A stretch of 24,893 bases of DNA from a virus (IMGVR_UViG_2974665388_000001:1-24893); one strand, 5' to 3'. Positions 1-24,893 are shown, counted from the stretch's first letter. Notes: generated by a model from the sequence alone, not told the origin. Numbers and translations: made by a program.

Positions 1-30
1 TTGGGGGGACTGGGGCTCCCATTCGTTGCC

Positions 31-38
31 TTTATAAA
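31..38. promoter_or_regulatory. TATA box TTTATAAA (palindromic, possibly bidirectional)
   Basis: Lies 35 nt upstream of the first + strand ORF (TTG 73), in the divergent intergenic region shared across the junction with the only - strand gene. Confidence 0.55.
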
Positions 39-72
39 TCCTTGCAAGCCAATTAACAGGTTGGTGAGGGGC

Positions 73-174
73 TTGGGTGAAAAGGTGCTTAAGACTCCGT
101 GTAAGCAAAAGCCAGAGCTGTGTAAAAATGAGGAGAAAGTCAAGATATTGCCCGCTGGGGGTGAGGAAAAGTGA
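73..174 (+). CDS. Small 33-aa protein MGEKVLKTPCKQKPELCKNEEKVKILPAGGEEK (not in ORF track)
   Basis: SD GGTGAGGGG at 63-71, TTG start, TGA stop overlapping the GTG of the next ORF (GTGA); two Cys. Confidence 0.45.
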   Translation: MGEKVLKTPCKQKPELCKNEEKVKILPAGGEEK

Positions 175-407
175 GTGGAGGAGGGAAGCTCCCTGTAGAC
201 CCAAGCGAGATAAAGCAGATGCCTGAAGAGCAGCTACAGATGGGTATGAGCCTCCTAGAGCAGTTCCTGAAGGAGATAAAGGTTAAGGTGGAGCCGGACG
301 ACAAGGGAGTAAAGAGGATTGTCGTTGTTAGCTGGTATTATGAGATGCCAGACGAGGAAATGGCAAAGATTTTCGCTAAGAGTATAGCGGAGAGCCTCAG
401 GTCATAA
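171..407 (+). CDS. Hypothetical protein, 78 aa
   Basis: SD GGTGAGG upstream, natural composition, pyrimidine-rich tract downstream. Confidence 0.75.
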   Translation: MSGGGKLPVDPSEIKQMPEEQLQMGMSLLEQFLKEIKVKVEPDDKGVKRIVVVSWYYEMPDEEMAKIFAKSIAESLRS

Positions 408-441
408 TCCTCCTTCCAACCCCTTTCTTTAAGGTGGTATT

Positions 442-1068
442 ATGGGTAGGATTACTGTTGAGGAAGAGAGTGAGGTAAAGAAGGCTGCAAAGCGGGAGTC
501 TAGCAAGGAAGCATTAGACGTTGGGAGGCCTCTAGGCCCATTAAAAAAAGCGTATCCTGAGGCGTTTGAGAAGCTTACAGCCCTGGAGCACGCTACAGGG
601 AAGAAGAAGATAGAGATAATGGCTGAAGCAATAGAGTTCTATGCGGAACACGCCTTATTGGGGGAGGCTTTCAAGCGGATTAGGAATCTAGACCCGGATG
701 ATATTGAGGCTATATGGATAGTGTTCAACTATTTCGAGATGAAGGCGTGGAAGAGGCAGATGTTCATGGCTAAGGAGCTGATACAGGGAACAATAGGAGA
801 GGTCCTCAGGTGGAGGGAGGAGATTTATTCCGAGGCTTGGGAGCAGGCTAGGCAGTATTACGAGGAGAGGATTAGGAGGATGCAGCAGAGGGGAGACGAT
901 GCTAGGAGGAGGAGGGTGGAGGAGATAACAGAGAAGATTCTAGCGAGGCTTGAGCCTTTAGTTGAAGCAATGGTGGAGCAGATGCTTGCTCCAACTATGA
1001 AGGCAGCAGGGGTTAAAAAGAGGCCTATGGAGAATGTTAAAGTTACGGTAGAGGGCCTTGAGGATTAG
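442..1068 (+). CDS. Helical/coiled-coil protein with RHH-like segment, putative DNA-binding
   Basis: SD GGTGGT; PEAFEKLTALEHATGKKKIEIMAEAIEFY resembles the two helices of CopG-type RHH proteins; charged helical C-terminal half. Confidence 0.7.
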   Translation: MGRITVEEESEVKKAAKRESSKEALDVGRPLGPLKKAYPEAFEKLTALEHATGKKKIEIMAEAIEFYAEHALLGEAFKRIRNLDPDDIEAIWIVFNYFEMKAWKRQMFMAKELIQGTIGEVLRWREEIYSEAWEQARQYYEERIRRMQQRGDDARRRRVEEITEKILARLEPLVEAMVEQMLAPTMKAAGVKKRPMENVKVTVEGLED

Positions 1069-1294
1069 AATTGTAACTGAGGATTATGTTGCAATCATTT
1101 CTGTTAGAAGGGCAGCTTACCTCTATCCTCTTCTCCACTGTTTTGACTACAGGGACCCTAGGAGGTGTGTGATTGAGACTCTGAAGAGAAGAGGATATAC
1201 TGTCAAACACGGTTATGTTGATGAGCTAGGGGAGGTAATCGAGACTGAGAGGCATAAGATAGTTATTCAATATAATGAAAGAAAGGGTGATTGA
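1058..1294 (+). CDS. Hypothetical protein, 78 aa
   Basis: Overlaps the upstream gene, TTG start after GAGGG, natural composition. Confidence 0.65.
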   Translation: MRIRIVTEDYVAIISVRRAAYLYPLLHCFDYRDPRRCVIETLKRRGYTVKHGYVDELGEVIETERHKIVIQYNERKGD

Positions 1295-1297
1295 GGA

Positions 1298-1837
1298 TTG
1301 GTGAGGGGTGTGGCTAGAGAAAGAGAAGCGGGGTTTGAAAGGGTAATAGGGCTTGTTCTCACGCTTCCCCTAGTGCTTGTGATGACATGGCTCATATTCA
1401 ATGCAGCGGTAGCATTCGCTCAGCGAAAGGAGGAGACAGTTCAGGCTGGGTTGAAGGCAATAGAGACGTATAATGAGAGCACTGCTGTTGAGATACCTGA
1501 GGGCCCGATTGATTATCCTGTTGCCGTATTCGAGCCGGTTAATGGTGCTAGTCATTTCTCATACATTGAGGGCATAAAGATTGAGGACCTGAACCCAGGA
1601 GGATTTGATAGGATTATGGTTGCTGTAGAGGCGGAGCTGGGAAGCGGGGCAAGGGCAACTATAGTTCCGCCTACAGAGATAGCTGGGCCTGACACGCTTA
1701 GGTGGGTCCTTGACAGCGTCCCAACGGGTGATACTATAAAGAAGGTCCTCGTGTATATCTGGGGAGAGACGTTTAGAGCAGACCAGACCGCAACTGCAAC
1801 GATAAGGGTAACTGGGCTCCAGGCGAGGGTAACTTAA
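1298..1837 (+). CDS. Membrane-anchored beta-rich protein, putative virion/surface protein; paralog of 1844-2278
   Basis: N-terminal hydrophobic helix VIGLVLTLPLVLVMTWLIFNAAVAFA; shared motifs with the next ORF; likely start GTG 1310 after SD GGTGAGGGG. Confidence 0.75.
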   Translation: MVRGVAREREAGFERVIGLVLTLPLVLVMTWLIFNAAVAFAQRKEETVQAGLKAIETYNESTAVEIPEGPIDYPVAVFEPVNGASHFSYIEGIKIEDLNPGGFDRIMVAVEAELGSGARATIVPPTEIAGPDTLRWVLDSVPTGDTIKKVLVYIWGETFRADQTATATIRVTGLQARVT

Positions 1838-1843
1838 TAATAA

Positions 1844-2278
1844 ATGGAGCATGATGTAACGATTGGTGAGAGCGAAGTGCCGGTTTGGGAAAGCACGTTA
1901 AAGGGTCTTGCAATCCCCAAGGTCTTCAACGAGCAAAGGACTGGAAACATTAACTTCACGGGGAGCGGGACCCAGGATATCGAAACATTTGCTCCAGCGA
2001 ATGGGTTTGCCTATGTTGAGGGTGTTTATCTCAACTTGCAGAACCCAGGTACAGATGCTGTAACTGTTGATGTTGTTGCAGTCTATGATGATGCAACGGA
2101 AACAGTACTTGCATCCGTTAACCTCTCTGCTGGAGGAGCATTTGAAGACTGGCTAAGGTGGGCTTACGACGCTAAGACGAATGGGAAGACTGTAAAGCAA
2201 CTCAAGATAAGGGCAACTGCTGCTAGCAGCAATTCAGCTCTCAACTACACTGTCAGGGTTACTGGGACAGCACTCTAG
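1844..2278 (+). CDS. Beta-sandwich putative structural protein; paralog of 1298-1837
   Basis: T/A/V/N-rich beta pattern; motifs FAPANG, AYVEG, NPG, LRWAYD, TVRVTG are shared with the upstream ORF. Confidence 0.75.
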   Translation: MEHDVTIGESEVPVWESTLKGLAIPKVFNEQRTGNINFTGSGTQDIETFAPANGFAYVEGVYLNLQNPGTDAVTVDVVAVYDDATETVLASVNLSAGGAFEDWLRWAYDAKTNGKTVKQLKIRATAASSNSALNYTVRVTGTAL

Positions 2279-2287
2279 GTGAGTTGA

Positions 2288-2590
2288 ATGCCATTCTGGC
2301 AATCAGAGATTATCAAGGTTATAGTCAAGTACAAGGAGCCAGCAACAATAGAAAATGAGAAGGTTGAACGAGGGATACTAGAGACTGGTAACATTAGCTG
2401 GAGCTCGGGGGCCATAAACGAGTTCTTACTACTTCTTAACCCAAAGGGAGTTATGGATGTAGATTCGAAGAAGCAGCCAACACCATTTATGAATTCCGGA
2501 GGCAGGCCAACTGGGAACCACTTTAACTTAAACGCAAAGGCATCATATGAACACATTCCTCTTATTACATTCTCTGTCGAGGCTGCATAA
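2288..2590 (+). CDS. Hypothetical protein, 100 aa
   Basis: SD GGTGAG at 2278-2283, within the same gene run. Confidence 0.65.
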   Translation: MPFWQSEIIKVIVKYKEPATIENEKVERGILETGNISWSSGAINEFLLLLNPKGVMDVDSKKQPTPFMNSGGRPTGNHFNLNAKASYEHIPLITFSVEAA

Positions 2591-2634
2591 GATTATTAAT
2601 AAAAGGAGCCTCTCATAATCTGTGGTGCTTTGTC

Positions 2635-2766
2635 ATGAGCTTTAATGTCCCTACCGAGGCTGTCTCGAAAGCTAGCCTGGACGACCCCAATTGGGGGACA
2701 GGGGCCCATGAAATATTGATAAGCAAAGATTCACTTACTGAACTAGTTGAGAAAGGCACGGCTTAG
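2635..2766 (+). CDS. Small 43-aa protein MSFNVPTEAVSKASLDDPNWGTGAHEILISKDSLTELVEKGTA (not in ORF track)
   Basis: Fills the gap between genes, AT-rich TATA-like TATTAATAAA about 35 nt upstream, stop abuts the SD of the next gene. Confidence 0.5.
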   Translation: MSFNVPTEAVSKASLDDPNWGTGAHEILISKDSLTELVEKGTA

Positions 2767-2774
2767 GGGGTGGT

Positions 2775-3686
2775 ATGATGCCTCTATACAAGATTGAGGT
2801 GGGGAAAAGTAGCATAAAGGGTATTGTTGATGTTAATGGCGGTGTTAGAAGGAATCTCCAGCTTAGGCAGTTCTGGTCTCTCTTAACATCAATATTGCTT
2901 GACACGTCAGTAGCTCTCAGGGATACTGGAGGTTCTCAATATTCTGTTAACTATGGGAGTTCAAACCCGGACCTGGATGCTAGGATTGTGTTGGGCCAGG
3001 GAACGGACCCTCCTTCGTTTGGGCAGTATAACCTTGTGCAGTACTCGAAGGAGCTGCCTACAAACAAGGTTGTATCTGATGTCTCAGGTACTCCTCCATA
3101 CACGAGGGTAACTCTTTCAACTACTGCTGACATAGATGCACAGGAGCTCGGGATTAGGCAGGATATAAGATACTATTACCTGCTTACTAGGACTGTTCAG
3201 CAAGTAGCAATAGGAGACGTTCTGAACTATCATTTAGAGTTTAAGCAGCCCTGGCTGAAGAACTTTGCTTTATTCTGGTTTGGTAAGCTGAATAAGAGCA
3301 ATGTTGATGGGGTATTGGATGTTACTGGAGCTAGTAGGACGTTGAGGACGGCTGGGGATACAACTGCTGGAACTATGAGGCTGCTAATAAGCGAGGATAT
3401 TATAACGTGGAGCCCTACACTATATTCAATACCAAATGCGGTAGAGCTGACTGATTATCATTGGACCTTCTGGAGCAATGACAACTATGTTGTGCTAGTG
3501 TATCTTGCTAGCATAATACCGGCAGTAACTATGACGGTGAACACTATCGGGATAGTTCAGAGACTGTATGACTCGGGTGGGAACCAGTTTGATGCTCTCC
3601 TAGCTGCTTTGGACATATCATCCAGCCCATTGACCTTAGAAGCAAACAAGCACAACTTCATAATGCTGAAATTCGTGTTCCACTAG
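2775..3686 (+). CDS. Beta-rich putative fibre/appendage structural protein with internal duplication
   Basis: Motifs IVLGQGTDPPSFGQYNL and QELGI resemble tail-fibre/collar-type domains; the second half repeats the pattern (RLLISEDIITWSPTLYSI, NTIGI). Confidence 0.6.
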   Translation: MMPLYKIEVGKSSIKGIVDVNGGVRRNLQLRQFWSLLTSILLDTSVALRDTGGSQYSVNYGSSNPDLDARIVLGQGTDPPSFGQYNLVQYSKELPTNKVVSDVSGTPPYTRVTLSTTADIDAQELGIRQDIRYYYLLTRTVQQVAIGDVLNYHLEFKQPWLKNFALFWFGKLNKSNVDGVLDVTGASRTLRTAGDTTAGTMRLLISEDIITWSPTLYSIPNAVELTDYHWTFWSNDNYVVLVYLASIIPAVTMTVNTIGIVQRLYDSGGNQFDALLAALDISSSPLTLEANKHNFIMLKFVFH

Positions 3687-3693
3687 CTCGGCT

Positions 3694-3708
3694 AAACCCT
3701 TATCATAA
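3694..3708 (+). promoter_or_regulatory. BRE-TATA-like promoter AAACCCTTATCATAA
   Basis: Same AAACC(C)TT context as other intergenic promoters; upstream of SD GGGGTG and ATG 3741. Confidence 0.5.
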
Positions 3709-3740
3709 CTTTTTTGCTCTTACCTATTCTAGGGGTGCAT

Positions 3741-4526
3741 ATGAAGAGCGTTACGGCAGACCTTCCTTACCCCTACAAGTATGCTCATTGGCTCTGTGTA
3801 TCTATGAGAGCTAAGAGTATGAGTTATGAGGACAGGCTGGAGGCAGCCAGACAATGTTTAGCTGAGGGTAAGACGATAGGAATAGTAAACCTGTTTGGGC
3901 TCAAGCAGCCGTTGGACAGTCAGGGTTACAGGTACAGGTTTGACGGGGTTGCTTCAGTTGTTAGGAGGGATTCTAGGGTAGAGGTTGTTACTGAGAGGAG
4001 AGAGCGGGTTCCAGAGACGGTTTGGGAGAGGCTTGGTATGAGTGAGGAGCAGTACAGGCTGGGCATGAACTACTATAAAACTACTGCAAAAGAGCTGGCT
4101 GGAATATTTGATGTAAGCCTTGAGGAAGAGATTGAGAAGCTGTATAATAAGGCTTATGGGAGGATGACTCCTGAAGAGTTTGGAATAGAGCTTGCAAGGA
4201 TGATTAAGGACAGGCTTTTACAGCTTGTAAGAGAAGCTAGGAGGATGCAGGATGTTTTGAGAATGCTTGAGGAGAGGTATGGCATTAGGCTAGGCATAGA
4301 GGAGCCAACCGAGTTCATAAGGATTGTGGAGGAGGCTAGCCCTAGCAGCGTTATATCAATCCTATTCAAGGAGAACATCTACCAGATTGTCAGGTGGTAT
4401 AACAGGTTGAAGCGTGTTACAGAGCATGTCGAAGTTATAGAGAAGGCTGAGGAGTCTCTGAGGACAGGGAAGCTGCTAGTATCAGAGGAGGAGCTGAAAA
4501 GCTGCTTGAGGGCCTCCCAGAGCTAA
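3741..4526 (+). CDS. Protein with N-terminal His/Cys domain (paralog of 24377-24577) and helical C-terminus; C-terminus may be frameshift-truncated
   Basis: ATG 3741 after SD GGGGTG (track start 3714); alignable with 24377-24577; the -1 frame after 4500 continues to TGA 4607-4609. Confidence 0.75.
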   Translation: MKSVTADLPYPYKYAHWLCVSMRAKSMSYEDRLEAARQCLAEGKTIGIVNLFGLKQPLDSQGYRYRFDGVASVVRRDSRVEVVTERRERVPETVWERLGMSEEQYRLGMNYYKTTAKELAGIFDVSLEEEIEKLYNKAYGRMTPEEFGIELARMIKDRLLQLVREARRMQDVLRMLEERYGIRLGIEEPTEFIRIVEEASPSSVISILFKENIYQIVRWYNRLKRVTEHVEVIEKAEESLRTGKLLVSEEELKSCLRASQS

Positions 4527-4605
4527 GGGCAAGGTATGAGAGGCTATTACAGCAGTTTAAGGGAGGGCATACAGGTTTGAGATTCCAGGCTATGCTGTCG
4601 AGGAC

Positions 4606-5829
4606 TTGAATCATGTCTTTAGTATTAGTGGTGGGGATGTGTTTATAGTTCCATCTAGCTATGAAGTAGCATTTGTAACTCTCAACCCTGAATATACTGT
4701 AGCACTTGCCCTCTACCTCGACGTGAAGGTCGAGGGAACACCATTCCCCGTGAAGATTAGTAATGAGATAGTGCTAGAGCCGGGAGAGGTGGAGGTTAGG
4801 GAGAAGGCTGGGGTAGTAGAGGTTGTAGTAGCAGGAAGGAAGTACAGTGGTGCTCTGGCAAATCCAGAAGAGATACTGATGCCAGCGAAATTTGAAACAG
4901 TAGACATGCTCACAATTAGAGTTGATGTTGATGTGTTGAGGCTCATGAGGGACGTTAATACTGTAGCTTTATCGCTTGATGAGGATGTAGGCCTTGCTGA
5001 AGGAGACAACTGGGCTGTCATCGAGTTTGACAAGGATGGCAAGTTTGAGGCCGAGGCAGTGTTTCACGGTCGCTGGATAAGGCAGGCAGTACCTCCGAGC
5101 GTGTTTAGGGCGAGGAAGGATACAGTAACTATGAGGATTGCAAGGGATAGGCCTGTTATAGTTGAGGGTTATACTAGAGCTGGGCAACGGTTTGTTGCTG
5201 CAATAGGGCAATCTGTCGAGTCCCCAGGAATCCCATCAAGGTTCATATATCTTGAGCCAGAGTACATGAGGCCTAGTGAGCTCCTAGGCGTGCTTGAACT
5301 TGCATTTGATGTGGTGCTAGACTATTATAGCATATATGGAGTATTTACGCATTATGATTTCTTCAGTATAGGGCTCTCTAAAGGGGCTTCAGGAAGGTAC
5401 AGGTTGAGGCATAGCTTGCATGTGCCCAGGCCTATTAAGAGGGCAGTTGATATTGCAGGGGGGCTTCAAGCAGCACCGAGAGACGGTGTTTTAGACGTTA
5501 ATGGAGCCTTGCTAGAAGAGGTTGAGGAGCTACCTCGGGACATAGCAGAGGCAAAGGCTAGAGTAGAGGAGTATCAAATAGTTGAGGTATTCAACGTTAG
5601 AACGAAAGTGGATAGAGCTGAAATCAGGGATGGGGAGTTAATACTGTACAAGGGGAGGAGCGAGGTTCTAAGGATAAGCGTGCCTATATCAGGGGACTTT
5701 AGATTCGATAGCGAGCTGATACGGTACTTCACTCCAGGGGGGATAACGTTGATGGAGAGGGATGGGGAAGTTGCGTTGAGGTTTGAGAAGAGCTATAACA
5801 CATGGCTATTCGTGGAGGGGGTGAGATAA
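4606..5829 (+). CDS. Putative divergent sliding-clamp (PCNA-fold) protein with two fused PCNA-like units
   Basis: By-eye motifs: VAFVTLNPEYTVALALYL (PCNA AMDPSRVALIDL-like), KDTVTMRIARDRPVIVEGY (PCNA C-terminal strands), second unit ending GDFRFDSELIRYF...EVALRFEKSYNTWLFVEG. Coding is certain; the function is inferred. Confidence 0.55.
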   Translation: MNHVFSISGGDVFIVPSSYEVAFVTLNPEYTVALALYLDVKVEGTPFPVKISNEIVLEPGEVEVREKAGVVEVVVAGRKYSGALANPEEILMPAKFETVDMLTIRVDVDVLRLMRDVNTVALSLDEDVGLAEGDNWAVIEFDKDGKFEAEAVFHGRWIRQAVPPSVFRARKDTVTMRIARDRPVIVEGYTRAGQRFVAAIGQSVESPGIPSRFIYLEPEYMRPSELLGVLELAFDVVLDYYSIYGVFTHYDFFSIGLSKGASGRYRLRHSLHVPRPIKRAVDIAGGLQAAPRDGVLDVNGALLEEVEELPRDIAEAKARVEEYQIVEVFNVRTKVDRAEIRDGELILYKGRSEVLRISVPISGDFRFDSELIRYFTPGGITLMERDGEVALRFEKSYNTWLFVEGVR

Positions 5830-6636: not shown

Positions 6637-6680
6637 TAAAAGCAACTGACTTTAGCTTGTGGTAGAGAGTGGGTGAGAAT

Positions 6681-6812: not shown

Positions 6813-6825
6813 GGGGTGAGGAGTG

Positions 6826-12412: not shown

Positions 12413-13459
12413 GTGATGGTGAAGACGGTAAAGGTTCCGGATGAGCTCTATGAGAAGCTAAAGGAGATGGCAGACTCCCAGGGCAAGGCAATACATGAGG
12501 TAATCTCAGGCCTCCTGGAGAGGATAGAGGTTGGGGAGGTTCAAATCAAGCTCCCAAAGCCAAAATTCATACCATTGAGGTATCCTGCATATTGTGTGTT
12601 AGGGAACCATAAGATTGACCCTGAGGAATACAGGAAGAATACTGGAAGAATACCATATGCTCTTTGGTTCCCAGAGCTAGGTGGAGTAATATGCATTGAT
12701 TGTTTGATAAAAGAGGTATTCACAAAGGAGGAGCAAGCGAAGGTTTTGACAAAACTTGAAGTAGAGATTAGGAAGCTTAGAGCAATCAAGAGACAGCTTA
12801 ACAAGGAAGTAGAGGAGCTTGCAATGCAGTATAGCGTTGCAGAGATATTTGCAAGGCTAGACTCGATTATTAATGAGATAAACGAAGCACTGAAGCTTGT
12901 AAGGAGCCTCGAAGACTATATTTGGTGTAAGGAGGAGGAGTGTGAGGAGAAGAAGAAGGTTGTTCTTGAGGCTATGGAGAAGATTGATGGCATAAAAGAG
13001 CAACTAGAAAAGCTGGAGCTACCCGAGAGTTGGGCTAAGAAGCTGATAAAGAAGGCTGCTTCAGAGTCATATACATCAACATCATATAGCAGCTACAGGA
13101 GGAGAAGGTGGGGGTCGATGGGATGGAAGCGGTTGAAAGAAAGAGCTATCAAGTCGAGGGTTATCAAAACGACGCATCGCCTTGTAGACGGCTCTTTGAA
13201 AGAGTACCAGCGAATCAACTACTACTTCCAGATGTACTTCTCGATTCCAGAGTGGTGGTTGAAAGAGGAGACGAAGCGTTACGAGATACTGCAAGTAGAG
13301 AAGGCGAGAAGCTTCTTAGTGCTACCCCAGGATATTACTCTGGAGGAGTTGGAGTCGTTGAGGAGAGAGATATCGAGCCTGATAAGAAAGGCGAGGAGAG
13401 GCAAACAGATATTTGCGACCAATGCGAGGAAGCGAAAAGAATCTGCAAGGGGAGGATGA
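12413..13459 (+). CDS. Multidomain protein: N-terminal RHH, C/H-C-x2-C zinc finger, coiled coil, basic C-terminal domain
   Basis: KTVKVPDELYEKLKEMADSQGKAIHEVI (RHH); YCVLGNH...ICIDC; long heptad region. Confidence 0.8.
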   Translation: MMVKTVKVPDELYEKLKEMADSQGKAIHEVISGLLERIEVGEVQIKLPKPKFIPLRYPAYCVLGNHKIDPEEYRKNTGRIPYALWFPELGGVICIDCLIKEVFTKEEQAKVLTKLEVEIRKLRAIKRQLNKEVEELAMQYSVAEIFARLDSIINEINEALKLVRSLEDYIWCKEEECEEKKKVVLEAMEKIDGIKEQLEKLELPESWAKKLIKKAASESYTSTSYSSYRRRRWGSMGWKRLKERAIKSRVIKTTHRLVDGSLKEYQRINYYFQMYFSIPEWWLKEETKRYEILQVEKARSFLVLPQDITLEELESLRREISSLIRKARRGKQIFATNARKRKESARGG

Positions 13460-14126: not shown

Positions 14127-14179
14127 GTTTTGGCACATACAGACTAAGTAGTAAGGTTTATTACCCCCCGTGCCAAAAC
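14127..14179. repeat. Perfect 10-bp inverted repeat GTTTTGGCAC-N33-GTGCCAAAAC flanking the recombinase TATA box (TTTATTA 14157-14163)
   Basis: Read directly; the arms are identical to those at 22691-22718. Confidence 0.9.
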
Positions 14180-14201
14180 TGGTAGGGTGGAGGGATGCGG
14201 G

Positions 14202-15413
14202 ATGCCCAGGCCCTCTATCCAGAATGTCCTCGATTTAAGGCGGGATGAGGTCCTTGAGCTCCTTGGTCGAGGCATCCCAGCGGAGGATGTAGCGAAGAAA
14301 TTCGGGGTATCAAGGAGGACGCTATACCGCTGGCTAGAGCGTCAAGGCCTCACTGTTCAGAAAATCAGGGAGGAGTACCAGAAGCTGAAGGAGGAGCGTG
14401 AAAGGCGGAAGAGGGAGAGGCTAGCAGCTATTGGTGAGATACCGGAGGACTTCGAGAAGTTTGTTGAAATCGAGGAGGTAAGAAAGTTCCTTGACTGGCT
14501 CAAAGCAAGGAGGGTAACAACAGCAGTAGACATCGTGAGAACCCTACACAGGGTATGCCTAGACCTTGGTATCCACCCGATGCTACTGCTTGAGGATGAG
14601 GGGAAGGAGAAGCTGACGAGCCTCCTAGCCAAGTACAATGAAATGTATAAGAAGTGGACTGTGGAGAGCATTAAGGCCAATCTCAGGCTGTGGTACAAGT
14701 TCAACGAGAAGATGCCCCCCGCTATATTGAGCCTCGAAGCCTACAAGTCCAACATGGCTCACCTAGCGTGGTTCAACGTTAGCGATAGAGCCGTAATCCT
14801 TGAGACAGCCTTCCGCTTACTCGACAAGGAGCAGTTTGACAAGGTTAGAGCAGCTTTATTGTTCCTATTCTATACTGGGTCGAGGGCTGAAGCCCTGACT
14901 AACGTGAGGTTTGAGGCTCGTGAGGTTCAAGTTGATGGTAAGAGGATTACAGCGATAATAGCAATCACGAGGGAGAAGGGTAGGCACGGGAAAAAGCAGT
15001 GGGAGAAGCCTCTCCATCCAGTCATCTATGAAAAGTACATCAAGGGCAGGCTGCCATTCTCCCAGGCGGAGCTCAAGTGGTTGAGGAGGGTCCTCAAAGC
15101 GATATACAGAGAAGCTCTGAAGGGGCAGGAGAGCAGCGTGAAATATGAGTATGCTATGAAACACGTCATTCATATCTGGAGACACACGGCAGCAATGAGC
15201 ATGTTGCATGCGACGGACTGGAACGTTGGACTTGTTGCTGAGATTCTTGGGTGGGAGAGCCCCGATATTCTCCTCAAAATTTACGGCAGGATGCCTCCAG
15301 AGTGGAAGATTGCCCAGGCGTTGGGTGTAACTGTCGAGAGGCCTCCGTTCAGGTTTGTTTACGGGAATGAAGAAGAGAGGCTCAAGGAGCTTAGAATTCT
15401 GGAGCTCCCTTAA
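14202..15413 (+). CDS. Tyrosine recombinase with N-terminal HTH
   Basis: YTGSRAEAL (R), REKG (K), HIWRH (HxxR), LGW, KIYG (Y); N-terminal HTH GIPAEDVAKKFGVSRRTLYRWL; ATG 14202 after GGAGGG (track start 14187). Confidence 0.92.
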   Translation: MPRPSIQNVLDLRRDEVLELLGRGIPAEDVAKKFGVSRRTLYRWLERQGLTVQKIREEYQKLKEERERRKRERLAAIGEIPEDFEKFVEIEEVRKFLDWLKARRVTTAVDIVRTLHRVCLDLGIHPMLLLEDEGKEKLTSLLAKYNEMYKKWTVESIKANLRLWYKFNEKMPPAILSLEAYKSNMAHLAWFNVSDRAVILETAFRLLDKEQFDKVRAALLFLFYTGSRAEALTNVRFEAREVQVDGKRITAIIAITREKGRHGKKQWEKPLHPVIYEKYIKGRLPFSQAELKWLRRVLKAIYREALKGQESSVKYEYAMKHVIHIWRHTAAMSMLHATDWNVGLVAEILGWESPDILLKIYGRMPPEWKIAQALGVTVERPPFRFVYGNEEERLKELRILELP

Positions 15414-17440: not shown

Positions 17441-18613
17441 GTGAGAGGCGTGAGAGTTCTGATAACAGGTGTAACTGGGTTCAAGGGCTCTTATCTTGCG
17501 AAGAGGCTCGTTGAGGAGGGATGGAGGGTTTTCGGGCTGGTCAGGGGGAGAAGCGATAACCACAGATTCGTAAGGCTTAGACTACTGGGGATTCTCGATA
17601 ACGTGGAGCTTGTTGATGGGGACATGACAGACCCTGTGAGCTTGCAGAGAGCGATAGCTAAGACCCAGCCGGACGTGATATTTCACCTTGCGGCTCAATC
17701 TTTCGTTGGAAGGAGTTTCGAGGCTCCGCTGGAAACATTTAACATTAACGCTTACGGGACGGTAGCCCTACTTGAGGCTGCAAGAGCTCATGTACCAGAC
17801 TCTAAGATAATCGTTGCAGGTAGCAGTGAGGAGTATGGTAAACAGTTCATATCGGAGATGCAGTGGGAGAGGAGCGGGAAGCCGGGTCCAGAGCCTAAAA
17901 GGCTCCCCGAGCTCCCGATTCGTGAAGACAACCCGCTTAGACCTGTTAGCCCATATGCTTTGAGTAAGGTTGTTGAGGACTTTGCTTGCCAGGCCTATGC
18001 TAGGATGTATAACATGGATTGTACAGTTCTCAGGGTCTTCAATACTGAGGGCCCTCTCAGGGGAGAGGTCTTCGTTACGGCATCAATAGTGAAGCAGCTT
18101 GTAGCAGTCAAGAACGGCTTGAGAAAATATGTCGAGCTAGGCAACGTTGCAGCTATGAGGGACTGGTCTCATATCGAGGACACCATTGAGGCTTATTATA
18201 ACGCTACAAAGGTGAGAGGAGGCGTTTACAACGTTGGTAGCGGGAGGATTAACAGTGTGCTCTACTTCCTTGTTAGAGCGTTTAACGCTGTGTTTAATGA
18301 TGAGGCAGAACTCGTTAGGATAGAGGATAGGAACGTTATTACACTGTTCCCAGAGGAGGTTGACGAGATGATTTTGAGTTACATGAAGGAAGGTGTTGAA
18401 CCATTCAAGCCAGGCATGAGGATATCTGTGATAGGCAAGAGACATAGTGTTGATGTGGTTCTTAGCAGAGAGAGGTTCAGGCCTGCTGACGTTCCTCTGC
18501 TACAAGCTGACTATTCAAGGTTTGCACAAGCTACTGGATGGAAGCCTATGAGGAGCCTAGACGACATCATAGAGGACCTTGTAAGCTTCTATACTGGAAG
18601 GTGGAAGCCTTGA
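17441..18613 (+). CDS. gmd: GDP-mannose 4,6-dehydratase-like extended SDR
   Basis: VLITGVTGFKGSYLA, HLAAQSFVGRSF, SSEEYG, SPYALSK (YxxxK), FNTEGPLRGEVFVT, RDWSH, RPADV. Confidence 0.9.
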   Translation: MRGVRVLITGVTGFKGSYLAKRLVEEGWRVFGLVRGRSDNHRFVRLRLLGILDNVELVDGDMTDPVSLQRAIAKTQPDVIFHLAAQSFVGRSFEAPLETFNINAYGTVALLEAARAHVPDSKIIVAGSSEEYGKQFISEMQWERSGKPGPEPKRLPELPIREDNPLRPVSPYALSKVVEDFACQAYARMYNMDCTVLRVFNTEGPLRGEVFVTASIVKQLVAVKNGLRKYVELGNVAAMRDWSHIEDTIEAYYNATKVRGGVYNVGSGRINSVLYFLVRAFNAVFNDEAELVRIEDRNVITLFPEEVDEMILSYMKEGVEPFKPGMRISVIGKRHSVDVVLSRERFRPADVPLLQADYSRFAQATGWKPMRSLDDIIEDLVSFYTGRWKP

Positions 18614-19269
18614 AGGCCCTCCAACGGATGGAGAAAGTGGTGGAACAGGCCAAGAAATGGGCTAGCAAGGGAGACGGAATCATTAGCGGTAGTGTTGCAG
18701 CATGGCTACAGGGAATTAAATTGCAGCTTCGAGACGCAGACATAATTGTTAAGAAGATGCCTAGCATTAAGGAAGTGGAGATAGTGAAGGCCGAGAGGGT
18801 TGTTTACGGGAGCACTATAAACGACGTTGTTGCATTCATTGATGATGGGGTTGGTGTGGAACTAGTTGCTAATCCAGTTGTGTACAGGTACCTTGCTGAG
18901 AGAGGTGTTGTGGTTGATGGGCTGAAGGTTGTGTCGTTGAGTGAAGTATTTGCAATGAAGCTGGCAAAGCTTGCAATAAGCCTTGGAGCCAGTAAAGCAG
19001 ATATTATCTGGCATCAAGTGCCAAAGACGGTATCAGACTTACTGTTGCTTTACGATGAAGGCGTTGTTGATTTTGCCCGTGTAAGAGATTTCATCGAGAC
19101 GTTTGGGTTCAGGGACGCTATTGCATTGCTAAGATACAGCCATATTGCTCTTGAAGTGCAGATGTCGTTTACTCTAGCATCATACTATCTTGGAATATAC
19201 GATTACGAGGAGGTTATGGAGATTTATCGAAGCATGATGAGGGAGACGTTGGAGGTGCTCGGGGTATGA
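18610..19269 (+). CDS. Pol-beta-superfamily nucleotidyltransferase 1 (AbiEii/MenT-like)
   Basis: IISGSVAAWLQG...RDADI, VELV, VVSLSEVFAMKL; TTG 18610 overlaps the gmd stop (TTGA), SD GGTGGA (track start 18538). Confidence 0.7.
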   Translation: MKALQRMEKVVEQAKKWASKGDGIISGSVAAWLQGIKLQLRDADIIVKKMPSIKEVEIVKAERVVYGSTINDVVAFIDDGVGVELVANPVVYRYLAERGVVVDGLKVVSLSEVFAMKLAKLAISLGASKADIIWHQVPKTVSDLLLLYDEGVVDFARVRDFIETFGFRDAIALLRYSHIALEVQMSFTLASYYLGIYDYEEVMEIYRSMMRETLEVLGV

Positions 19270-19865
19270 GGTTAAGGGCTTACACGTTAGAAGACCTAGC
19301 TAGAGTCTATAAAAAGGTAGATGCGAAGTTCAAAGTCGTTGTTGGGGATATTGTGGCCTGCATCTATGGATATCCTTGCTTGGCTAAAGACATTGACTTA
19401 GTTATGCCGCTTGAGCTAGCTGGGAGGCTCAAGAACCTGCCAGGCGTGAAACTCGGAGAAGGCAAGGTTGTTGAAACAGAGATTGACGGCATAAACGTTA
19501 GCTTCAACCTTGAGCCCATGTTCAGGCTTAAGCTATTCTACATGCCTTTTATTGAGGTATCAAGGATTAACGGGGTAGAGGTTGCTCATTACTCTCTGGA
19601 AAGGTATGTTGCTGGACGGCTGAAAAGGCTAATAATAATGCTAAGGAACGGGAAGGAGAATATCTATCTCATACCTTATCAGTTGATGGACTTGGTGCCA
19701 ATCCTGTGTGATAAGAGAGAGATACTATTGGGGGCTAGGCGTATTCTTGAGAGGAGGTTTGACATGGATTATAACGAGTTGTTGCGGATGAATAGGGACA
19801 TTATTGATGCTGCAAACAATATGAGTAGAGACATATTCGGAGTTGCTTGCAGATGGTCGTGGTGA
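19266..19865 (+). CDS. Pol-beta-superfamily nucleotidyltransferase 2
   Basis: VVVGDIVACIYG...KDIDLV, YSLERYVAGRLKRL; ATGA coupling. Confidence 0.65.
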   Translation: MRLRAYTLEDLARVYKKVDAKFKVVVGDIVACIYGYPCLAKDIDLVMPLELAGRLKNLPGVKLGEGKVVETEIDGINVSFNLEPMFRLKLFYMPFIEVSRINGVEVAHYSLERYVAGRLKRLIIMLRNGKENIYLIPYQLMDLVPILCDKREILLGARRILERRFDMDYNELLRMNRDIIDAANNMSRDIFGVACRWSW

Positions 19866-19868
19866 ATC

Positions 19869-20537
19869 GTGGTGGTATGGATAAGGGATAGGTGTTGCTT
19901 GAGGGCATTAAGCCTTGCAGAAGCCGTTTTAAAGGAGAGTACAGCGTTCCCTGCTGGGAGCCTTTTGCTCCTCAAGGGTGGTGTTCAGACTTACTTTAGG
20001 GATATTGATATTATGAGTACTGTTGAGGATTACGAGAGGAATGCTGAAGTTTTCAATAGAATCCTGAGTGAATGCACAGTCTTGAAGCATAGATGGCTTG
20101 CTAGGAGCTGTTTTGGTTGCCCTGTCGAGCTTATACCCGTCCCGAGCTTCCTAAAGGAAGAATACGAGAGGAGGGGCCCAGTAGAGTTTTGGCTTGGAAC
20201 TAACATTGCGAAACTTACACGTTGGAAGCACGAGTTCACGGCTGCAAAGTTCCTAGCAAAACTTTTTGTCGTGTTGTCCCAGGTGGATGATATTAGCATT
20301 GAAGATGTTAGGGAGCACTTAGAGGTTCAGAGGAAAGTTGGTTACATGCGGGGTAAGATTCAGATTAAAAAGAGCACGTTTACTCCTGCATATTATCTTT
20401 ACAGATACATCTATATTAGCGATGATACGAGGTTTGTTGAAGCAGCTTATGAGCACGAGTTAGGCGTATTCTCATCAAGGCTTATTGCATTTTTTGAGAG
20501 GCTTCGCTCACACGGAATACCCGTTGAAATCCTTTAG
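19869..20537 (+). CDS. Pol-beta-superfamily nucleotidyltransferase 3
   Basis: FPAGSLLLLKGG...RDIDIM, PVELI, AAKFLAKL. Confidence 0.65.
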   Translation: MVVWIRDRCCLRALSLAEAVLKESTAFPAGSLLLLKGGVQTYFRDIDIMSTVEDYERNAEVFNRILSECTVLKHRWLARSCFGCPVELIPVPSFLKEEYERRGPVEFWLGTNIAKLTRWKHEFTAAKFLAKLFVVLSQVDDISIEDVREHLEVQRKVGYMRGKIQIKKSTFTPAYYLYRYIYISDDTRFVEAAYEHELGVFSSRLIAFFERLRSHGIPVEIL

Positions 20538-20585: not shown

Positions 20586-20828
20586 ATGGACCCGGAGCTG
20601 AAACCCATTATTCGGCTTATCCTTCTAAGGCTCGTGGAAGAGCCCGGGGCAAGAATGAAATATAGAAAGCTTTACAGATATGTTCAAGAGCACGCAAAGA
20701 AATTCGGGGTATCCCCAACTGAAGCCATTTACGCAGCAGCCAACCTAGACCTTATTGTTATTGAGGGAGACGAGGTAAGGCTGACAGAGAAGGGGGAGAA
20801 AGAAACATTTATAATAATGGGATGGTAG
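20586..20828 (+). CDS. Winged-helix protein, 80 aa
   Basis: Helices followed by the wing LIVIEGDEVRLTEKG. Confidence 0.8.
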   Translation: MDPELKPIIRLILLRLVEEPGARMKYRKLYRYVQEHAKKFGVSPTEAIYAAANLDLIVIEGDEVRLTEKGEKETFIIMGW

Positions 20829-20848
20829 CTAGAGTTATGGTGAGGGTT

Positions 20849-21019
20849 ATGGCTAGCCCATTAGATTTATCATCAATATTCGGCCAGCTAGTGCCAATAT
20901 TCGTGTTCATCATGATATTTGTACTGCTGATTACGCTGTTCAAGACCCTCTTCAGAACAATATCAGGGGCCTCTGCTAGGAGGTTTCCAAGCATCTTAGC
21001 TAGGATAAGGGGCAGGTAA
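20849..21019 (+). CDS. 56-aa membrane peptide MASPLDLSSIFGQLVPIF... (MASP family) with basic tail
   Basis: ATG 20849 after SD GGTGAGGG (track start 20822); homologous to 6681 and 6826. Confidence 0.85.
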   Translation: MASPLDLSSIFGQLVPIFVFIMIFVLLITLFKTLFRTISGASARRFPSILARIRGR

Positions 21020-21342: not shown

Positions 21343-21627
21343 GTGGAAGGCTTGGAAAGGGATGTCTTCTGTGTTGTGGCTGGTAAGGGCTATCAGGGGA
21401 CATCTGTAGTTGGGGCTACTATCGTGTGCTATAGGACGTATGATGACACAAAGCAGATAACTATCAAGGCTACTAAGGCTGGGAGGACAATGGGGGGTAG
21501 GAGTGTCTGGAGAATGTGGATTGAGGGAAGACCCGAGACCGAGAACACAGTATTTATTAGAAGGGCAACAGAGGAGGAGCTTAGGAGGATGGCACATCTC
21601 CTATTCGGGCACATGGTGCCAAAGTGA
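21343..21627 (+). CDS. Hypothetical protein, 94 aa
   Basis: GTG start, beta-rich composition, same strand as neighbours. Confidence 0.65.
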   Translation: MEGLERDVFCVVAGKGYQGTSVVGATIVCYRTYDDTKQITIKATKAGRTMGGRSVWRMWIEGRPETENTVFIRRATEEELRRMAHLLFGHMVPK

Positions 21628-22109: not shown

Positions 22110-22120
22110 GGGGATTCCAC

Positions 22121-22498: not shown

Positions 22499-22508
22499 GT
22501 GCCAAAAC
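22499..22508. repeat. Lone half-site GTGCCAAAAC
   Basis: Identical to the arms at 14170 and 22709. Confidence 0.8.
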
Positions 22509-22690
22509 CTCTCCTATAATAAAAATCTCTCCTTAGTAGGCTCGGGAAATGAGAAGAATAACCCCCCGGGATTGGGAGGCCCAAAGGAGAAACCATCAAA
22601 GGGGAAATGGCACACAGGACCATAATTCCAACTCTACATAGTCTAGGGAGTATCCTTAACTGAAGGCCTCTTCCTCATTGTTTAGAGGGG

Positions 22691-22718
22691 GTTTTGGCAC
22701 AGACACAAGTGCCAAAAC
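22691..22718. repeat. Perfect palindrome GTTTTGGCAC-AGACACAA-GTGCCAAAAC (10-8-10), candidate tyrosine-recombinase site / ssDNA hairpin
   Basis: Read directly; the architecture of two inverted arms with an asymmetric 8-nt spacer is typical of lox/FRT-type sites. Confidence 0.85.
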
Positions 22719-22758
22719 TGTGCCAGCATCATTGTCCATATGAAAAGGTCATCAGATA

Positions 22759-22839
22759 ATGGGGGTCCCAATCCGCTTGCTTATGGTATCCCAGCCATGA
22801 GGCTCATGGTATCCCAACTTCATCAGTCATGGTATCCCA
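22759..22839 (+). repeat. Direct repeats ATGGTATCCCA x3 (22783, 22806, 22829) plus degenerate ATGGGGGTCCCA (22759); exact 23-nt period; iteron-like
   Basis: 3' ends at 22770, 22793, 22816, 22839. Confidence 0.85.
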
Positions 22840-23034
22840 CATTATCATTACTATGTTTCAAAGCCCTCTTTCAAACATCATGAATCATTGATGTGAATAG
22901 GGCTTCGGCCTGTGCCAATTTGCAAGTTTTGAGTTAATAGGCATAAGAGTTTAGCTTATAGATGGTACAGAAGAGTTGTGTCTTTAAGCCAATCACCTTA
23001 CCAATTAAGGTATGTTTCCCAGCATACTCTAGCC

Positions 23035-23120
23035 TACCATCAAGTATGCTTTTTTCCATTCACTTAGAATACCCGAAGCTTACCATTCAGTATGCATAGT
23101 AATACCATCAAGCATACCAT
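23035..23120 (+). repeat. TACCAT-core repeats (23035, 23081, 23103, 23115), inverted relative to the ATGGTA cores
   Basis: TACCATCAAGTATGC, TACCATTCAGTATGC, TACCATCAAGCATAC read directly. Confidence 0.7.
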
Positions 23121-23496
23121 CATGGATGCTAGGTGGATATATCGGGGTATGCTCCTTAAAAGTGCGGTCTCCACAAGAAACAATATCGGTCGGAGGGGTT
23201 TGGTGGTGGATGAGGAATCATTCACCACAATCTTAAGGAGGCTTCATATGCCAGGATACCTCAAGGCTCTGCTGTACATCGCATATAAGTCTAAGAAGAC
23301 GGAGAACGGGGTTGTGCAGCTTCCGTTAGTGCTGAGAAGAAGCAAGTACCCGTTTAACCGCAACGACATCTATAGGCTTGAGTATGAGGGGATGATTGCT
23401 ATGGTTAAGGAAGAGAATAGGATAGTCGTTTCAATGCTTGCTAAGGGCTGGGAGGAGCTCAAGGCTTTAAGAGAAATCTTGGAGGTGGTCTCATGA
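23092..23496 (+). CDS. Winged-helix protein (real start probably ATG 23122 or 23149)
   Basis: C-terminal IYRLEYEGMIAMVKEENRIVVSMLAKGWEEL wing; the N-terminal codons overlap the repeats. Confidence 0.7.
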   Translation: MHSNTIKHTIMDARWIYRGMLLKSAVSTRNNIGRRGLVVDEESFTTILRRLHMPGYLKALLYIAYKSKKTENGVVQLPLVLRRSKYPFNRNDIYRLEYEGMIAMVKEENRIVVSMLAKGWEELKALREILEVVS

Positions 23497-23777
23497 AGGT
23501 GATTCAGACAAAGTTGGGTGAGGAGGAGTATAAGGTTCTAAAGGAGATTGCAGAGGCTCAAGGAGTCAGCATGTACGAGCTCGTTAGAAGGATAGTGTTG
23601 AAGGAGCTTGCAAAGATGGGGAAGGTAAAGCGGGATAAGATTAACAGTCAAGACAGGCTAGAGGAGCTTGAACATAGGGTATCAATGTTGGAGGAGCGAG
23701 TTAAGAGAATCGAGACGGATATCAAAGAAATCAAGCAACGACTCCAGAGGAACTCGATTGATAGGTGGGTGAGATAA
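23493..23777 (+). CDS. RHH (CopG-like) protein with coiled coil
   Basis: VIQTKLGEEEYKVLKEIAEAQGVSMYELVRRIV; heptads LEELEHRVSMLEERVKRIE. Confidence 0.85.
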   Translation: MKVIQTKLGEEEYKVLKEIAEAQGVSMYELVRRIVLKELAKMGKVKRDKINSQDRLEELEHRVSMLEERVKRIETDIKEIKQRLQRNSIDRWVR

Positions 23778-24136
23778 TGAACAAGATAGACAAGGATATA
23801 CTTGAGGCCGTGATGAAGATGACAAACCAGAGGCGTGATGTTAAGATAACGAAGGATGAGCTGTTTGTTTACATGTACCTGAGCATGAAGAGGAATGGCT
23901 TGAAACCATATAGCTTCGAGACGATAGCCAGGAGACTTAGAATCCTCGTTAGAAAGGGCTACTTTACCGTGAAATACGTTGAAGAGAAGAAAGGCAATCT
24001 GAAGTGGAGAAGAGCATACTACATTCCACGAAGGCTAACAATAGCTGCAAAGCTGAAGGCAGAGCAGTTAAGGTCTGCTACTCTAACAGTTTATGGGGTT
24101 AAAGTTGGAGCCAGCAGTAACAGCAGCGAGCGATGA
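23765..24136 (+). CDS. Winged-helix protein (start probably ATG 23777)
   Basis: SFETIARRLRILVRKGYF followed by a beta wing ending AYYIP. Confidence 0.8.
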   Translation: MGEIMNKIDKDILEAVMKMTNQRRDVKITKDELFVYMYLSMKRNGLKPYSFETIARRLRILVRKGYFTVKYVEEKKGNLKWRRAYYIPRRLTIAAKLKAEQLRSATLTVYGVKVGASSNSSER

Positions 24137-24398
24137 AGAGCTAAAACAGAGAATTATGAAGGTCTTGCAGAACGGGAGCAAGACTCTTGTCGAGGTTCAT
24201 TTTTTAGTTGAGAAGACTGGCTTCGTTGTTTCTTACAGGCGTCTCAAGCTGGTTGTTGACGAGATGGTTCAATCTGGGCTTATAGAAAAAATGAGGGACG
24301 GAAAAAAGGTAAAGTATAAGATAAAAGAAGGGCAGCATAAGATATGGCTCGAATACCCCTGGAGAGGTGAGGAAGAGTGGGCAAGTATGCGACTCTAA
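24093..24398 (+). CDS. ArsR-like winged-helix protein
   Basis: RIMKVLQNGSKTLVEV...LVVDEMVQSGLIEKMRDGKKVKYKI. Confidence 0.8.
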   Translation: MGLKLEPAVTAASDEELKQRIMKVLQNGSKTLVEVHFLVEKTGFVVSYRRLKLVVDEMVQSGLIEKMRDGKKVKYKIKEGQHKIWLEYPWRGEEEWASMRL

Positions 24399-24577
24399 CA
24401 CAGGACCTTCCCGAGGAGTACAGGAAGGCTCACCCCATATGTGTGGCTAGTAAAGTGGCCAAAATGGGCTACGAGCCTGCAAGGGCTCCTAGGGACGTGA
24501 GGCAGAGAGCAGCCGAGGAGTGTATAAGGGAGGGCAAGCTGCACGGCATAGTGAAGCTGCTAAGCCCCTCGGTTTGA
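24377..24577 (+). CDS. 66-aa His/Cys protein, stand-alone paralog of the N-terminal domain of 3741-4526
   Basis: TQDLPEEYRKAHPICV...AAEECIREGKLHGIVKL aligns with TADLPYPYKYAHWLCV...AARQCLAEGKTIGIVNL. Confidence 0.8.
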   Translation: MGKYATLTQDLPEEYRKAHPICVASKVAKMGYEPARAPRDVRQRAAEECIREGKLHGIVKLLSPSV

Positions 24578-24582
24578 AGGCC

Positions 24583-24804
24583 CTAGAACCTATACCTCCT
24601 AATTATTTTTTCAATGTCGCTTACACTGAACTTCTTCTTCTTGTTTGACATCAAATACTGAATTTGAAGGAATCTCAGTACTCTTACAACCTTTCCAATT
24701 GGATGCTTTAAGAGGATATCTGTCATCTTGTCTGCATCATCCTCTCCCAACCCTAGCTCGATGAGAGTCCTTCTTATCATATCTCTGAATTCTTTCCGCT
24801 CCAC
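24583..24804 (-). CDS. Only antisense gene; 73-aa basic helical protein
   Basis: GTG start with SD GGTAGGTGA on the - strand; lies in a gap with no + strand ORF; converges on the 24377 gene. Confidence 0.8.
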   Translation of the reverse strand: MERKEFRDMIRRTLIELGLGEDDADKMTDILLKHPIGKVVRVLRFLQIQYLMSNKKKKFSVSDIEKIIRRYRF

Positions 24805-24849
24805 ATTATCACCTACCTGTAAAGTTGTTGGCTACTGCTAATTTGGGTT

Positions 24850-24893
24850 TCCCAGTCTCTCCCAGTCTCCCCCATTAATTCATATTCACCTAA
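24850..24893. repeat. Tandem TCCCAGTCTC x2 (24850-24869) and left arm of a hairpin that closes across the circular junction with nt 2-14
   Basis: CCCAGTC[T]CCCCCA (24861-24874) pairs with TGGGGGGACTGGG (2-14): 13 Watson-Crick pairs, one bulge, 20-nt AT-rich loop. Confidence 0.75.

Follow-up and report, generated by a model that had tools for sequence, protein, structure and literature searches.

How is a viral genome copied when it encodes no recognisable enzyme for copying it? The question is raised by IMGVR_UViG_2974665388_000001:1-24893, a stretch of 24,893 nt that we analysed over its whole length (the window) and that comprises the entire genome of Aeropyrum coil-shaped virus (ACV, Spiraviridae). 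To our knowledge, ACV has the largest known single-stranded DNA (ssDNA) genome and is the only hyperthermophilic ssDNA virus, and its replication mode has been an open question since its description in 2012. We report a family of metagenomic ACV relatives and, conserved across them, a unit consisting of a tyrosine recombinase, its candidate sites and an iteron-bearing non-coding element. These are the best candidates for what the virus itself contributes to the copying of its genome.

The window has a GC content of 46.67%, no terminal repeat and 57 plus-strand open reading frames (ORFs) of at least 40 codons, which cover 93.8% of it. Length, GC content, ORF number and gene content agree with the ICTV profile of the Spiraviridae (2020; 24,893 nt, 46.7% GC, 57 ORFs, 93.5% coding), and the initial annotation of the window had recognised the virus correctly. 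The same profile, citing the 2012 description, already states that neither a DNA or RNA polymerase nor a homolog of the rolling-circle replication (RCR) protein Rep can be identified in ACV. The absence of a recognisable replication enzyme is therefore published knowledge and not new here; the window shows the same lack of polymerase and RCR Rep and does not differ from the published virus in these properties. A megablast of the whole window gave no match in a phage collection from which its own record is probably withheld. The Spiraviridae have been described as a single-member family without known relatives. We found no mention of metagenomic ACV relatives, of the conserved non-coding core or of the co-variation between promoter and core arms in the searchable literature, outside of which the 2012 primary paper lies.

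A motif scan of all six frames of the window, covering each open frame of at least 60 aa, found no Walker A ([GA]x4GK[ST]), HUH/HUQ, PolB DTD or AEP DxD motif. Likewise, Pfam, PHROG and NCBIfam scans of all ACV ORFs returned no Rep, polymerase, primase or helicase family, and PF02407 (Viral_Rep), PF01446 (Rep_1), PF09250 (Prim-Pol) and PF00136 (DNA_pol_B) had no match in the six frames at E<=10. Motifs and profiles thus agree with the initial annotation, which had seen no HUH, PolB, AEP/DnaG or Walker A sequence; the divergent HUH Rep, primase or polymerase for which it had left room among the hypothetical ORFs does not appear by either approach at permissive thresholds. The profile matches that ACV does have are limited to two GT4 glycosyltransferases, a GDP-mannose dehydratase/epimerase, a Nal1-like serine protease, thioredoxin-like proteins, a zinc ribbon, ribbon-helix-helix (RHH) and helix-turn-helix (HTH) domains and an integrase. 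No tRNA gene or Rfam family was found in the window. Since no initiator, polymerase, primase, helicase or P-loop ATPase is encoded, we infer that the host replisome must copy ACV DNA, which is also the published view. ACV resembles the HUH-Rep ssDNA viruses (Microviridae, Inoviridae, CRESS viruses and some Pleolipoviridae) in the circular ssDNA ascribed to it and in its stem-loops and iteron-like non-coding repeats, whereas it has no HUH/Y motif, Rep profile, SF3 helicase or P-loop protein and its genome is several times larger.

We found relatives of ACV on more than 20 metagenomic contigs of up to 48.6 kb, colinear with ACV (loci L002-L011 and L020-L042). They come from a protein collection and from JGI and ENA metagenomes, with contigs walked outward from homologs of ORF 12413, which form 22 metagenomic clusters (52-58% identity). 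The recombinase alignment, used for a pattern scan of JGI metagenomes, gave 18 further loci, and scans of IMG/VR with ORF 4606, ORF 12413 and the recombinase alignment gave no relatives. The GC content of the relatives' contigs is 37-50%. Those used most below are:

N672: ena:ERZ1742239 NODE_672, 48,627 nt, the longest relative
S704: ena:ERZ23491094 scaffold_704, 39,965 nt, of which 35.8 kb were examined
L003, L023 and L024: contigs of about 20 kb
A further example: jgi Ga0190363_1000513, 22,752 nt

Precomputed Pfam assignments for the whole 48.6-kb contig, the 35.8 kb of S704 and the ~20-kb contigs include no Rep, polymerase, primase or helicase. Matches to the Walker A pattern in the relatives were rejected as spurious; they sit in Ig-like, RHH and methyltransferase ORFs. 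Since the relatives' contigs are likewise without replication genes, the absence is, as far as profiles can detect such genes, a family trait that holds over genome sizes from ~20 kb to at least 48.6 kb.

What the family has kept instead points to the recombinase and its neighbour.

14187..15413, plus strand: tyrosine recombinase with an HTH_7 domain (Pfam, 1.6e-8), 408 aa, likely ATG start at 14202
12413..13459, plus strand: ORF 12413, a protein with RHH, Cys/His residues (C61, H66, C94, C97) and a coiled coil according to the family alignment, next to the recombinase gene

The recombinase matches phrog_8 (1.4e-23), the integrase phrog_216 (1.3e-8) and phrog_1 (2.7e-7); PF00589 matches on its homologs are weak or faint, and a comparison with PDB sequences gave nothing beyond HTH and coiled-coil noise. 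The initial annotation had called the enzyme intact, and its catalytic residues bear this out: R233, H329xxR332, W356 and Y366 are all kept and are invariant across three genomes, and a Lys-rich beta-hairpin (GRHGKKQWEKP) is present. Recombinase identity is 54-70% over ~400 aa in more than 20 metagenomic contigs, compared with 35-56% for the glycosyltransferases, the protease and the ORF 12413 homologs among ACV relatives. By these alignments, the recombinase is the best-conserved large protein of the family. The recombinase gene always adjoins a homolog of ORF 12413, the second best-conserved protein. Members of the ORF 12413 family have an N-terminal RHH domain, invariant C61, H66, C94 and C97, which are probably zinc-binding, and a coiled coil. 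The ACV protein is a fusion, as the relatives have two adjacent genes (231 and 97 aa). A profile search of the family against PDB returned coiled-coil matches only.

Short inverted arms link the recombinase gene to a distant non-coding site.

14127..14179, no strand assigned: inverted 10-nt arms (GTTTTGGCAC / GTGCCAAAAC), 33 nt apart, flanking the TATA-like box of the recombinase promoter
22499..22508, minus strand: extra copy of the 10-nt arm
22691..22718, no strand assigned: perfect 10-8-10 palindrome made of two inverted GTTTTGGCAC copies, a candidate core-type site of the recombinase, predicted to form a hairpin if single-stranded

The 10-mer GTTTTGGCAC has five exact copies in the window (14127, 14170, 22499, 22691 and 22709), a number reached in none of 100 shuffles. 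The palindrome noted in the initial annotation is present, and its arms recur at the recombinase promoter. Arms around TTATATA upstream of the recombinase gene are also found in N672, S704, L023 and L024, and paired arms 41-44 nt apart at about ten further loci. The arm sequence differs by lineage: it is TTTTGGCAC in ACV, TTTTGRCAC in S704 and TTTGCACTC in N672, L023 and L024. Within each genome, the promoter arms agree with the arms in the large non-coding region, so that both sites change together between genomes. This is the strongest evidence that we have, because two distant arm sites that change together suggest that one protein reads both. As one of them is the recombinase's own promoter, the most economical reader is the recombinase itself, which we take as the candidate reader of both sites. 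In every relative, the recombinase gene lies on the strand opposite to its neighbours (L005:1593-2801, L004:7948-9171, L023:10932-12146 and L024:7264-8487), while in ACV it is co-oriented with them; it follows that the gene together with its arm-flanked promoter was inverted in one lineage.

The palindrome is itself part of a longer conserved element, which is followed by a run of small genes.

22683..22865, plus strand: conserved non-coding core with the palindrome, a third half-site, a TCATT block, GGG..TCCC and three iterons (five-genome alignment)
22783..22839, plus strand: three ATGGTATCCCA iterons (ATGGTRTCCC; also ATGGTATCCC) with a 23-nt period, found with Tandem Repeats Finder (TRF)
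22962..23125, no strand assigned: ATGGTA/TACCAT cores, one forward and four inverted, downstream of the AT-richer stretch and overlapping the annotated start of ORF 23092
23493..23777, plus strand: predicted DNA-binding protein with RHH and a coiled coil (Pfam RHH_1, 2.2e-4), the first supported binder after the non-coding region
23092..24577, plus strand: cluster of small ORFs 23092, 23493, 23765, 24093 and 24377, with weak winged-HTH (wHTH) hints besides the RHH domain

Across five genomes, the ~170-nt core has a mean column identity of 74% with 66 invariant columns, which exceeds the identity of most proteins of the same genomes (25-66%). Its elements are, in order, inverted arms with a 5-8-nt spacer, the half-site AGTGC(C)AG, TCATT..C.A.AT, GGG..TCCC and three ATGGTRTCCC iterons. 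The 23-nt tandem iterons at 22779-22839 have the best TRF score of the ACV genome (69), and the 9-mer ATGGTATCC is confined to the iteron region, with 3 copies in ACV, 11 in S704 and 5 in N672. ACV and S704 share three repeats at 23-nt spacing, the iterons align in five genomes and AT-richer DNA follows them. The iteron-like region of the initial annotation is thus a set of phased direct repeats beside an AT-richer stretch, kept across five genomes. At the place equivalent to ACV 22962-23125, S704 has many copies of GGATACCAT in both orientations. A 47-codon ORF at 22740-22883 was rejected as a gene; its sole 'homolog' (tblastn, S704) is iteron DNA. The RHH gene, ORF 23493 in ACV, always follows the non-coding region, and its homologs in N672 and S704 do so directly. 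Four DNA-binding genes had been proposed downstream of the iterons. One of them, ORF 23493, stands with an RHH_1 score of 21.5 bits against a cutoff of 20.5, while the other three have wHTH hints at E 0.05-0.09. ORFs 24093 and 24377 are conserved in the relatives.

The virus would thus supply a conserved cis/trans set made of the HTH-tyrosine recombinase, the inverted arms, the ~170-nt element with its iterons and small DNA binders predicted to be of RHH type. What might this set do? The reading that we prefer, tentatively and with somewhat more doubt than trust, is that the host replisome copies ACV and that the recombinase and its site resolve or circularise the products into unit-length genomes. 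In this mechanism, the ACV DNA would be copied by the host replisome, and the recombinase would bind the TTTTGGCAC arms and repress its own promoter. The enzyme would also recombine the palindrome, which would turn replication products into unit-length circles, maybe on a folded single strand, and the RHH/HTH proteins would bind the iteron block as an assembly site of an accessory or origin-like kind. The initial annotation had joined the parts into a single replication system. The recombinase, arms and iterons do form a real, conserved and co-varying unit, but for its function a replication role has to be set against multimer resolution, integration and transcription control; that the parts act together in replication is what we infer.

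The substrate of a tyrosine recombinase is a pair of inverted arms separated by a 6-8-bp spacer, and cleavage goes through a 3'-phosphotyrosyl link that leaves a 5'-OH; some of these enzymes use folded ssDNA (XerCD on CTX phage, IntI on attC). For host-replicated replicons, Cre and FLP bring about cyclisation, resolution or amplification. Cre/loxP of phage P1 and FLP/FRT of the yeast 2-micron plasmid are thus similar to what we propose for ACV, each being a host-replicated replicon with a tyrosine recombinase and a 13-8-13-like site; Cre cyclises or resolves genomes and FLP amplifies copy number. Both replicons, in contrast, are double-stranded DNA, and P1 has the RepA initiator and 2-micron a defined ARS, of which no equivalent was identified in ACV. 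With XerCD/dif of CTX phage and the integron pair IntI/attC, ACV shares a tyrosine recombinase and a site predicted to form a hairpin on the packaged single strand. Those systems, however, integrate into a chromosome through the host Xer or integron platform, whereas the ACV enzyme is encoded by the virus and its activity on ssDNA is a prediction.

Several observations weigh against the preferred reading. The palindrome and the direct repeats would also fit integration at an attP-like site, or a group of operators, the arrangement of the recombinase in ACV is atypical, as the gene is on the opposite strand in all relatives, and about 30 ORFs have no homology-based annotation, of which ORF 4606 alone was folded.

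According to the first of these possibilities, the recombinase and the non-coding element form an integration module without a role in replication, in which the palindrome would serve as attP core, the iterons as arm-type sites for the HTH domain and the RHH protein as an excisionase-like factor. The layout is indeed like that of lambda attP, with inverted core arms around a 5-8-nt spacer and phased direct repeats beside them, and the ACV enzyme resembles the lambda-type integrases in having a separate N-terminal DNA-binding domain. That domain, however, is an HTH_7 of the resolvase/transposase type, and the TATA box of the recombinase gene itself also lies between the arms. Moreover, the recombinase is universal in the family and its most conserved large gene, as one would not usually expect of an integrase. 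Neither an attB nor an integrated copy was seen: host flanks occur in none of the more than 20 contigs, though most of these are short, and the window has no tRNA gene. A search for the exact 10-N8-10 pattern in a one-genome-per-species collection returned 8 bacterial chance matches and no archaeal attB, which is a weak test as attB need not share both arms. Infection by ACV is furthermore reported to be non-lytic and chronic (ICTV profile). We therefore consider an integration module unlikely.

A different role for the recombinase, on the boldest reading of the initial annotation, is that of a replication initiator which nicks the palindrome hairpin for rolling-circle synthesis. No other DNA-cleaving enzyme is conserved throughout the family, and the sites of the recombinase are likewise kept and capable of forming hairpins. 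However, the 3'-phosphotyrosyl intermediate leaves a 5'-OH and so provides no 3'-OH primer of the kind that an HUH Rep gives, which argues against a nicking initiator. We know of no precedent for a tyrosine recombinase as a rolling-circle initiator, and we regard this role as very improbable.

Resolution or circularisation of host-made products, the role that we prefer, could be extended to spiravirus-like elements as a group, which would copy large ssDNA circles with no initiator, polymerase, primase or ATPase of their own. The recombinase would act on a hairpin core site next to iterons, cutting and resealing unit circles from concatemeric or rolling-circle products made by the host and thereby replacing termination and circularisation by an HUH Rep; in some members, a clamp-fold protein may recruit the host polymerase. 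We put this forward as a conjecture that is probably wrong in this full form. If true, the recombinase-based route would be a new way of making ssDNA circles. In either form, the relatives narrow the virus-specific candidates to three, namely the conserved recombinase, the co-varying sites and the ~170-nt iteron element, and what was a vague 'novel mechanism' becomes a set of specific, testable cis and trans candidates.

The proposed clamp-fold protein is ORF 4606.

4606..5829, plus strand: beta-rich protein of 407 aa with a possible sliding-clamp fold (low-confidence models)

Two AlphaFold2 runs, with 2-3 effective sequences, gave pLDDT values of 41 and 43, and residues ~310-407 alone are confident. 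All Foldseek matches of these models in PDB at E<=1e-3 are sliding clamps (40 for the first model and 66 for the second), with best E values of 1.2e-4 and 2.6e-5 and probabilities of 0.91-0.92 but a TM score of 0.15. Superpositions with VIA place residues 108-207 on a single PCNA domain (Z 4.1-4.9) and residues 239-407 on UL42, gp45, UL44 and PCNA (Z 4.3-5.6), all below the noise level of Z 7-8. A poor ESM-Atlas model has beta-clamp clusters as its nearest neighbours (TM 0.30). No sequence similarity to clamps was found, either with PF00705 (PCNA_N) and PF00712 (DNA_pol3_beta) in the six frames of ACV at E<=10 or with the family profile against PDB sequences, and self-hhalign detected no internal repeats. 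A word-index homology search with ORF 4606 returned the query only, and an exhaustive phmmer search one true relative. The N672 and S704 proteins (690 and 759 aa; L008:12372-14441 and L022:17899-20175) join this region to a long coiled coil and an N-terminal domain resembling ORF 3714. No homolog is present between ORF 442 and the thioredoxin genes of L024 or in the examined parts of L023 and L024.

ORF 4606 is thus like the DNA sliding clamps (PCNA, beta clamp, T4 gp45 and herpesvirus UL42/UL44) in its predicted order of secondary structures and in the superpositions of its domains, and differs from them in having no sequence similarity, a TM score of 0.15 and Z values of at most 5.6, in the coiled-coil extension of its relatives and in being missing from some of them. 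From the models, we give the clamp fold about even odds. The initial annotation had listed a PCNA-like protein among its parts; a weak resemblance at the level of the fold remains of this claim, while support from sequence and universality in the family do not. As the ORF is missing from its syntenic place in two relatives and from the examined parts of L023 and L024, it is not core equipment. It belongs to a variable block (ORFs 1298-4606) that is missing in some relatives and could equally be structural. Two paralogies involve members of this block: ORF 1298 (1298-1837) with ORF 1844 (1844-2278; E 1e-9), and the N-terminus of ORF 3714 (3714-4526) with ORF 24377 (24377-24577; E 4e-10).

The finding that ACV has no polymerase applies to replicases, and has to be qualified for a group of three genes.

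18538..20537, plus strand: three predicted Pol-beta-fold nucleotidyltransferase paralogs (ORFs 18538, 19266 and 19869), all with the motif G[SD]x11RD[IA]D

The downstream VEL/VSF strand, which is the third carboxylate strand, is also found in these three ORFs. They have no Pfam match at E<=0.1, and a word-index homology search with ORF 19266 returned the query itself only. The ESM-Atlas model of ORF 19266 (pTM 0.82) has TM scores of 0.62-0.67 and a feature score of 0.97 against AbiEii/DUF2204/DUF6036 clusters. The genes adjoin the glycosylation genes and are missing from N672, L023 and L024. Judging from the shared motif and, for ORF 19266, from the model, the three are minimal nucleotidyltransferases of the AbiEii/DUF6036 type and not replicative polymerases.

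Could a cryptic replication enzyme nevertheless be encoded, either in unannotated ORFs (2775, 3714, 442 or 9060) or by the nucleotidyltransferase-fold ORFs acting as unconventional polymerases or primases? There is room for it among the ~30 ORFs without homology-based annotation, ORF 4606 being the only one folded. In addition, three ORFs carry the catalytic motif of the Pol-beta superfamily, and ORF 4606, if it is a clamp, would imply a polymerase partner. Against it, no motif or profile signal appears at permissive thresholds, the nucleotidyltransferases resemble AbiEii/DUF6036/DUF2204, lie beside glycosylation genes and are missing from three relatives, and ORFs 1298-4606 are variable. Such an enzyme seems improbable to us.

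The initial annotation had pointed to a hairpin where the two ends of the window meet.

24851..24893, plus strand: stretch with the left half of the junction hairpin and its loop (hairpin 24861-24893 with 1-14; dG -15.1, z -3.9)
1..14, plus strand: right arm of the junction hairpin
24583..24804, minus strand: the sole minus-strand gene (73 aa), conserved in four relatives as a minus-strand gene of 74-78 aa in the same position (blastp E 3e-8 to 1.5e-7)

The genes at the ends of the window (24093, 24377, the minus-strand gene, 171 and 442) adjoin each other in the relatives, which supports a circular ACV map. The hairpin is present as described. With ssDNA parameters, it (z -3.9) and the window of the palindrome (z -3.8) rank in the top four for stability among 2,489 70-nt windows, and hairpins within coding regions match its stability. 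Its surroundings are a divergent promoter region, with the minus-strand gene on one side and ORF 171 on the other; S704 shares CCCCATTAATTCATAT, and a GGGA(C/G)TCCC palindrome between two TATA boxes is found at the junction in all five genomes compared. A conserved palindrome in such a place reads more like an operator, which for this hairpin is at least as likely as an origin.

The same could be true of all the repeats and hairpins, which would then be transcriptional operators only, serving the RHH/HTH proteins and the autoregulation of the recombinase, with an origin located elsewhere or not defined by sequence. In favour of operators, a TATA box lies between the arms, the junction hairpin is flanked by divergent promoters and has the conserved GGGA(C/G)TCCC, and the iteron region is just upstream of the RHH gene cluster. 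However, a 10-8-10 palindrome of the arms found at the recombinase promoter has the canonical shape of a recombination site, and ~170 nt of non-coding DNA at 74% identity and with 23-nt phasing exceed typical operator needs. We think it distinctly unlikely that operators are all there is.

GC skew was rejected as a replication signal. The skew of ACV is strong (G>C, +0.25) and follows the coding strand, at codon positions 1 and 3, and all ACV genes but the one at 24583-24804 are on the plus strand. Over the opposite-strand recombinase gene of the relatives the skew is reversed, and the non-coding regions of ACV are slightly C-rich (slightly negative skew). It is accordingly uninformative on the mode of replication.

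Three small paralogous membrane peptides are encoded at 6669-6812, 6823-6948 and 20822-21019, for two of which the relatives have peptides of 59-77% identity in the same position, an unusually high value for this family. Residues 237-274 of the protease (10493-11473) are paralogous to ORF 21343 (21343-21627; E 2e-4).

The relatives carry a number of extra genes, for Cas4-like nucleases, a radical-SAM protein with an intein, a methyltransferase, RAMP/Csf3, PAPS reductase, Cren7 and Ig-like proteins. The Cas4-like nucleases are found in marine relatives (L008:8615-9244, L023:16302-16901 and L024:11421-12011), and NODE_672 encodes RAMP and Csf3 (type IV CRISPR-like), PAPS reductase and a STIV B116-like gene at 43.8-48.0 kb (L010:11398-15567); ACV has none of these. 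The Cren7 chromatin protein (Pfam PF11520) encoded by scaffold_704 (L022:7304-7474) points to a crenarchaeal host and, possibly, to virus-directed compaction of DNA. Finally, a tandem array of at least 8 copies with a 54-nt period and the core TCTATCGAGAGATC lies ~1 kb from the recombinase promoter in two relatives (NODE_672 26495-27037, equivalent to L005:3888-4430, and L003:11898-12450); one contig has it within a called ORF of 410 aa, the other in a gap between gene calls.

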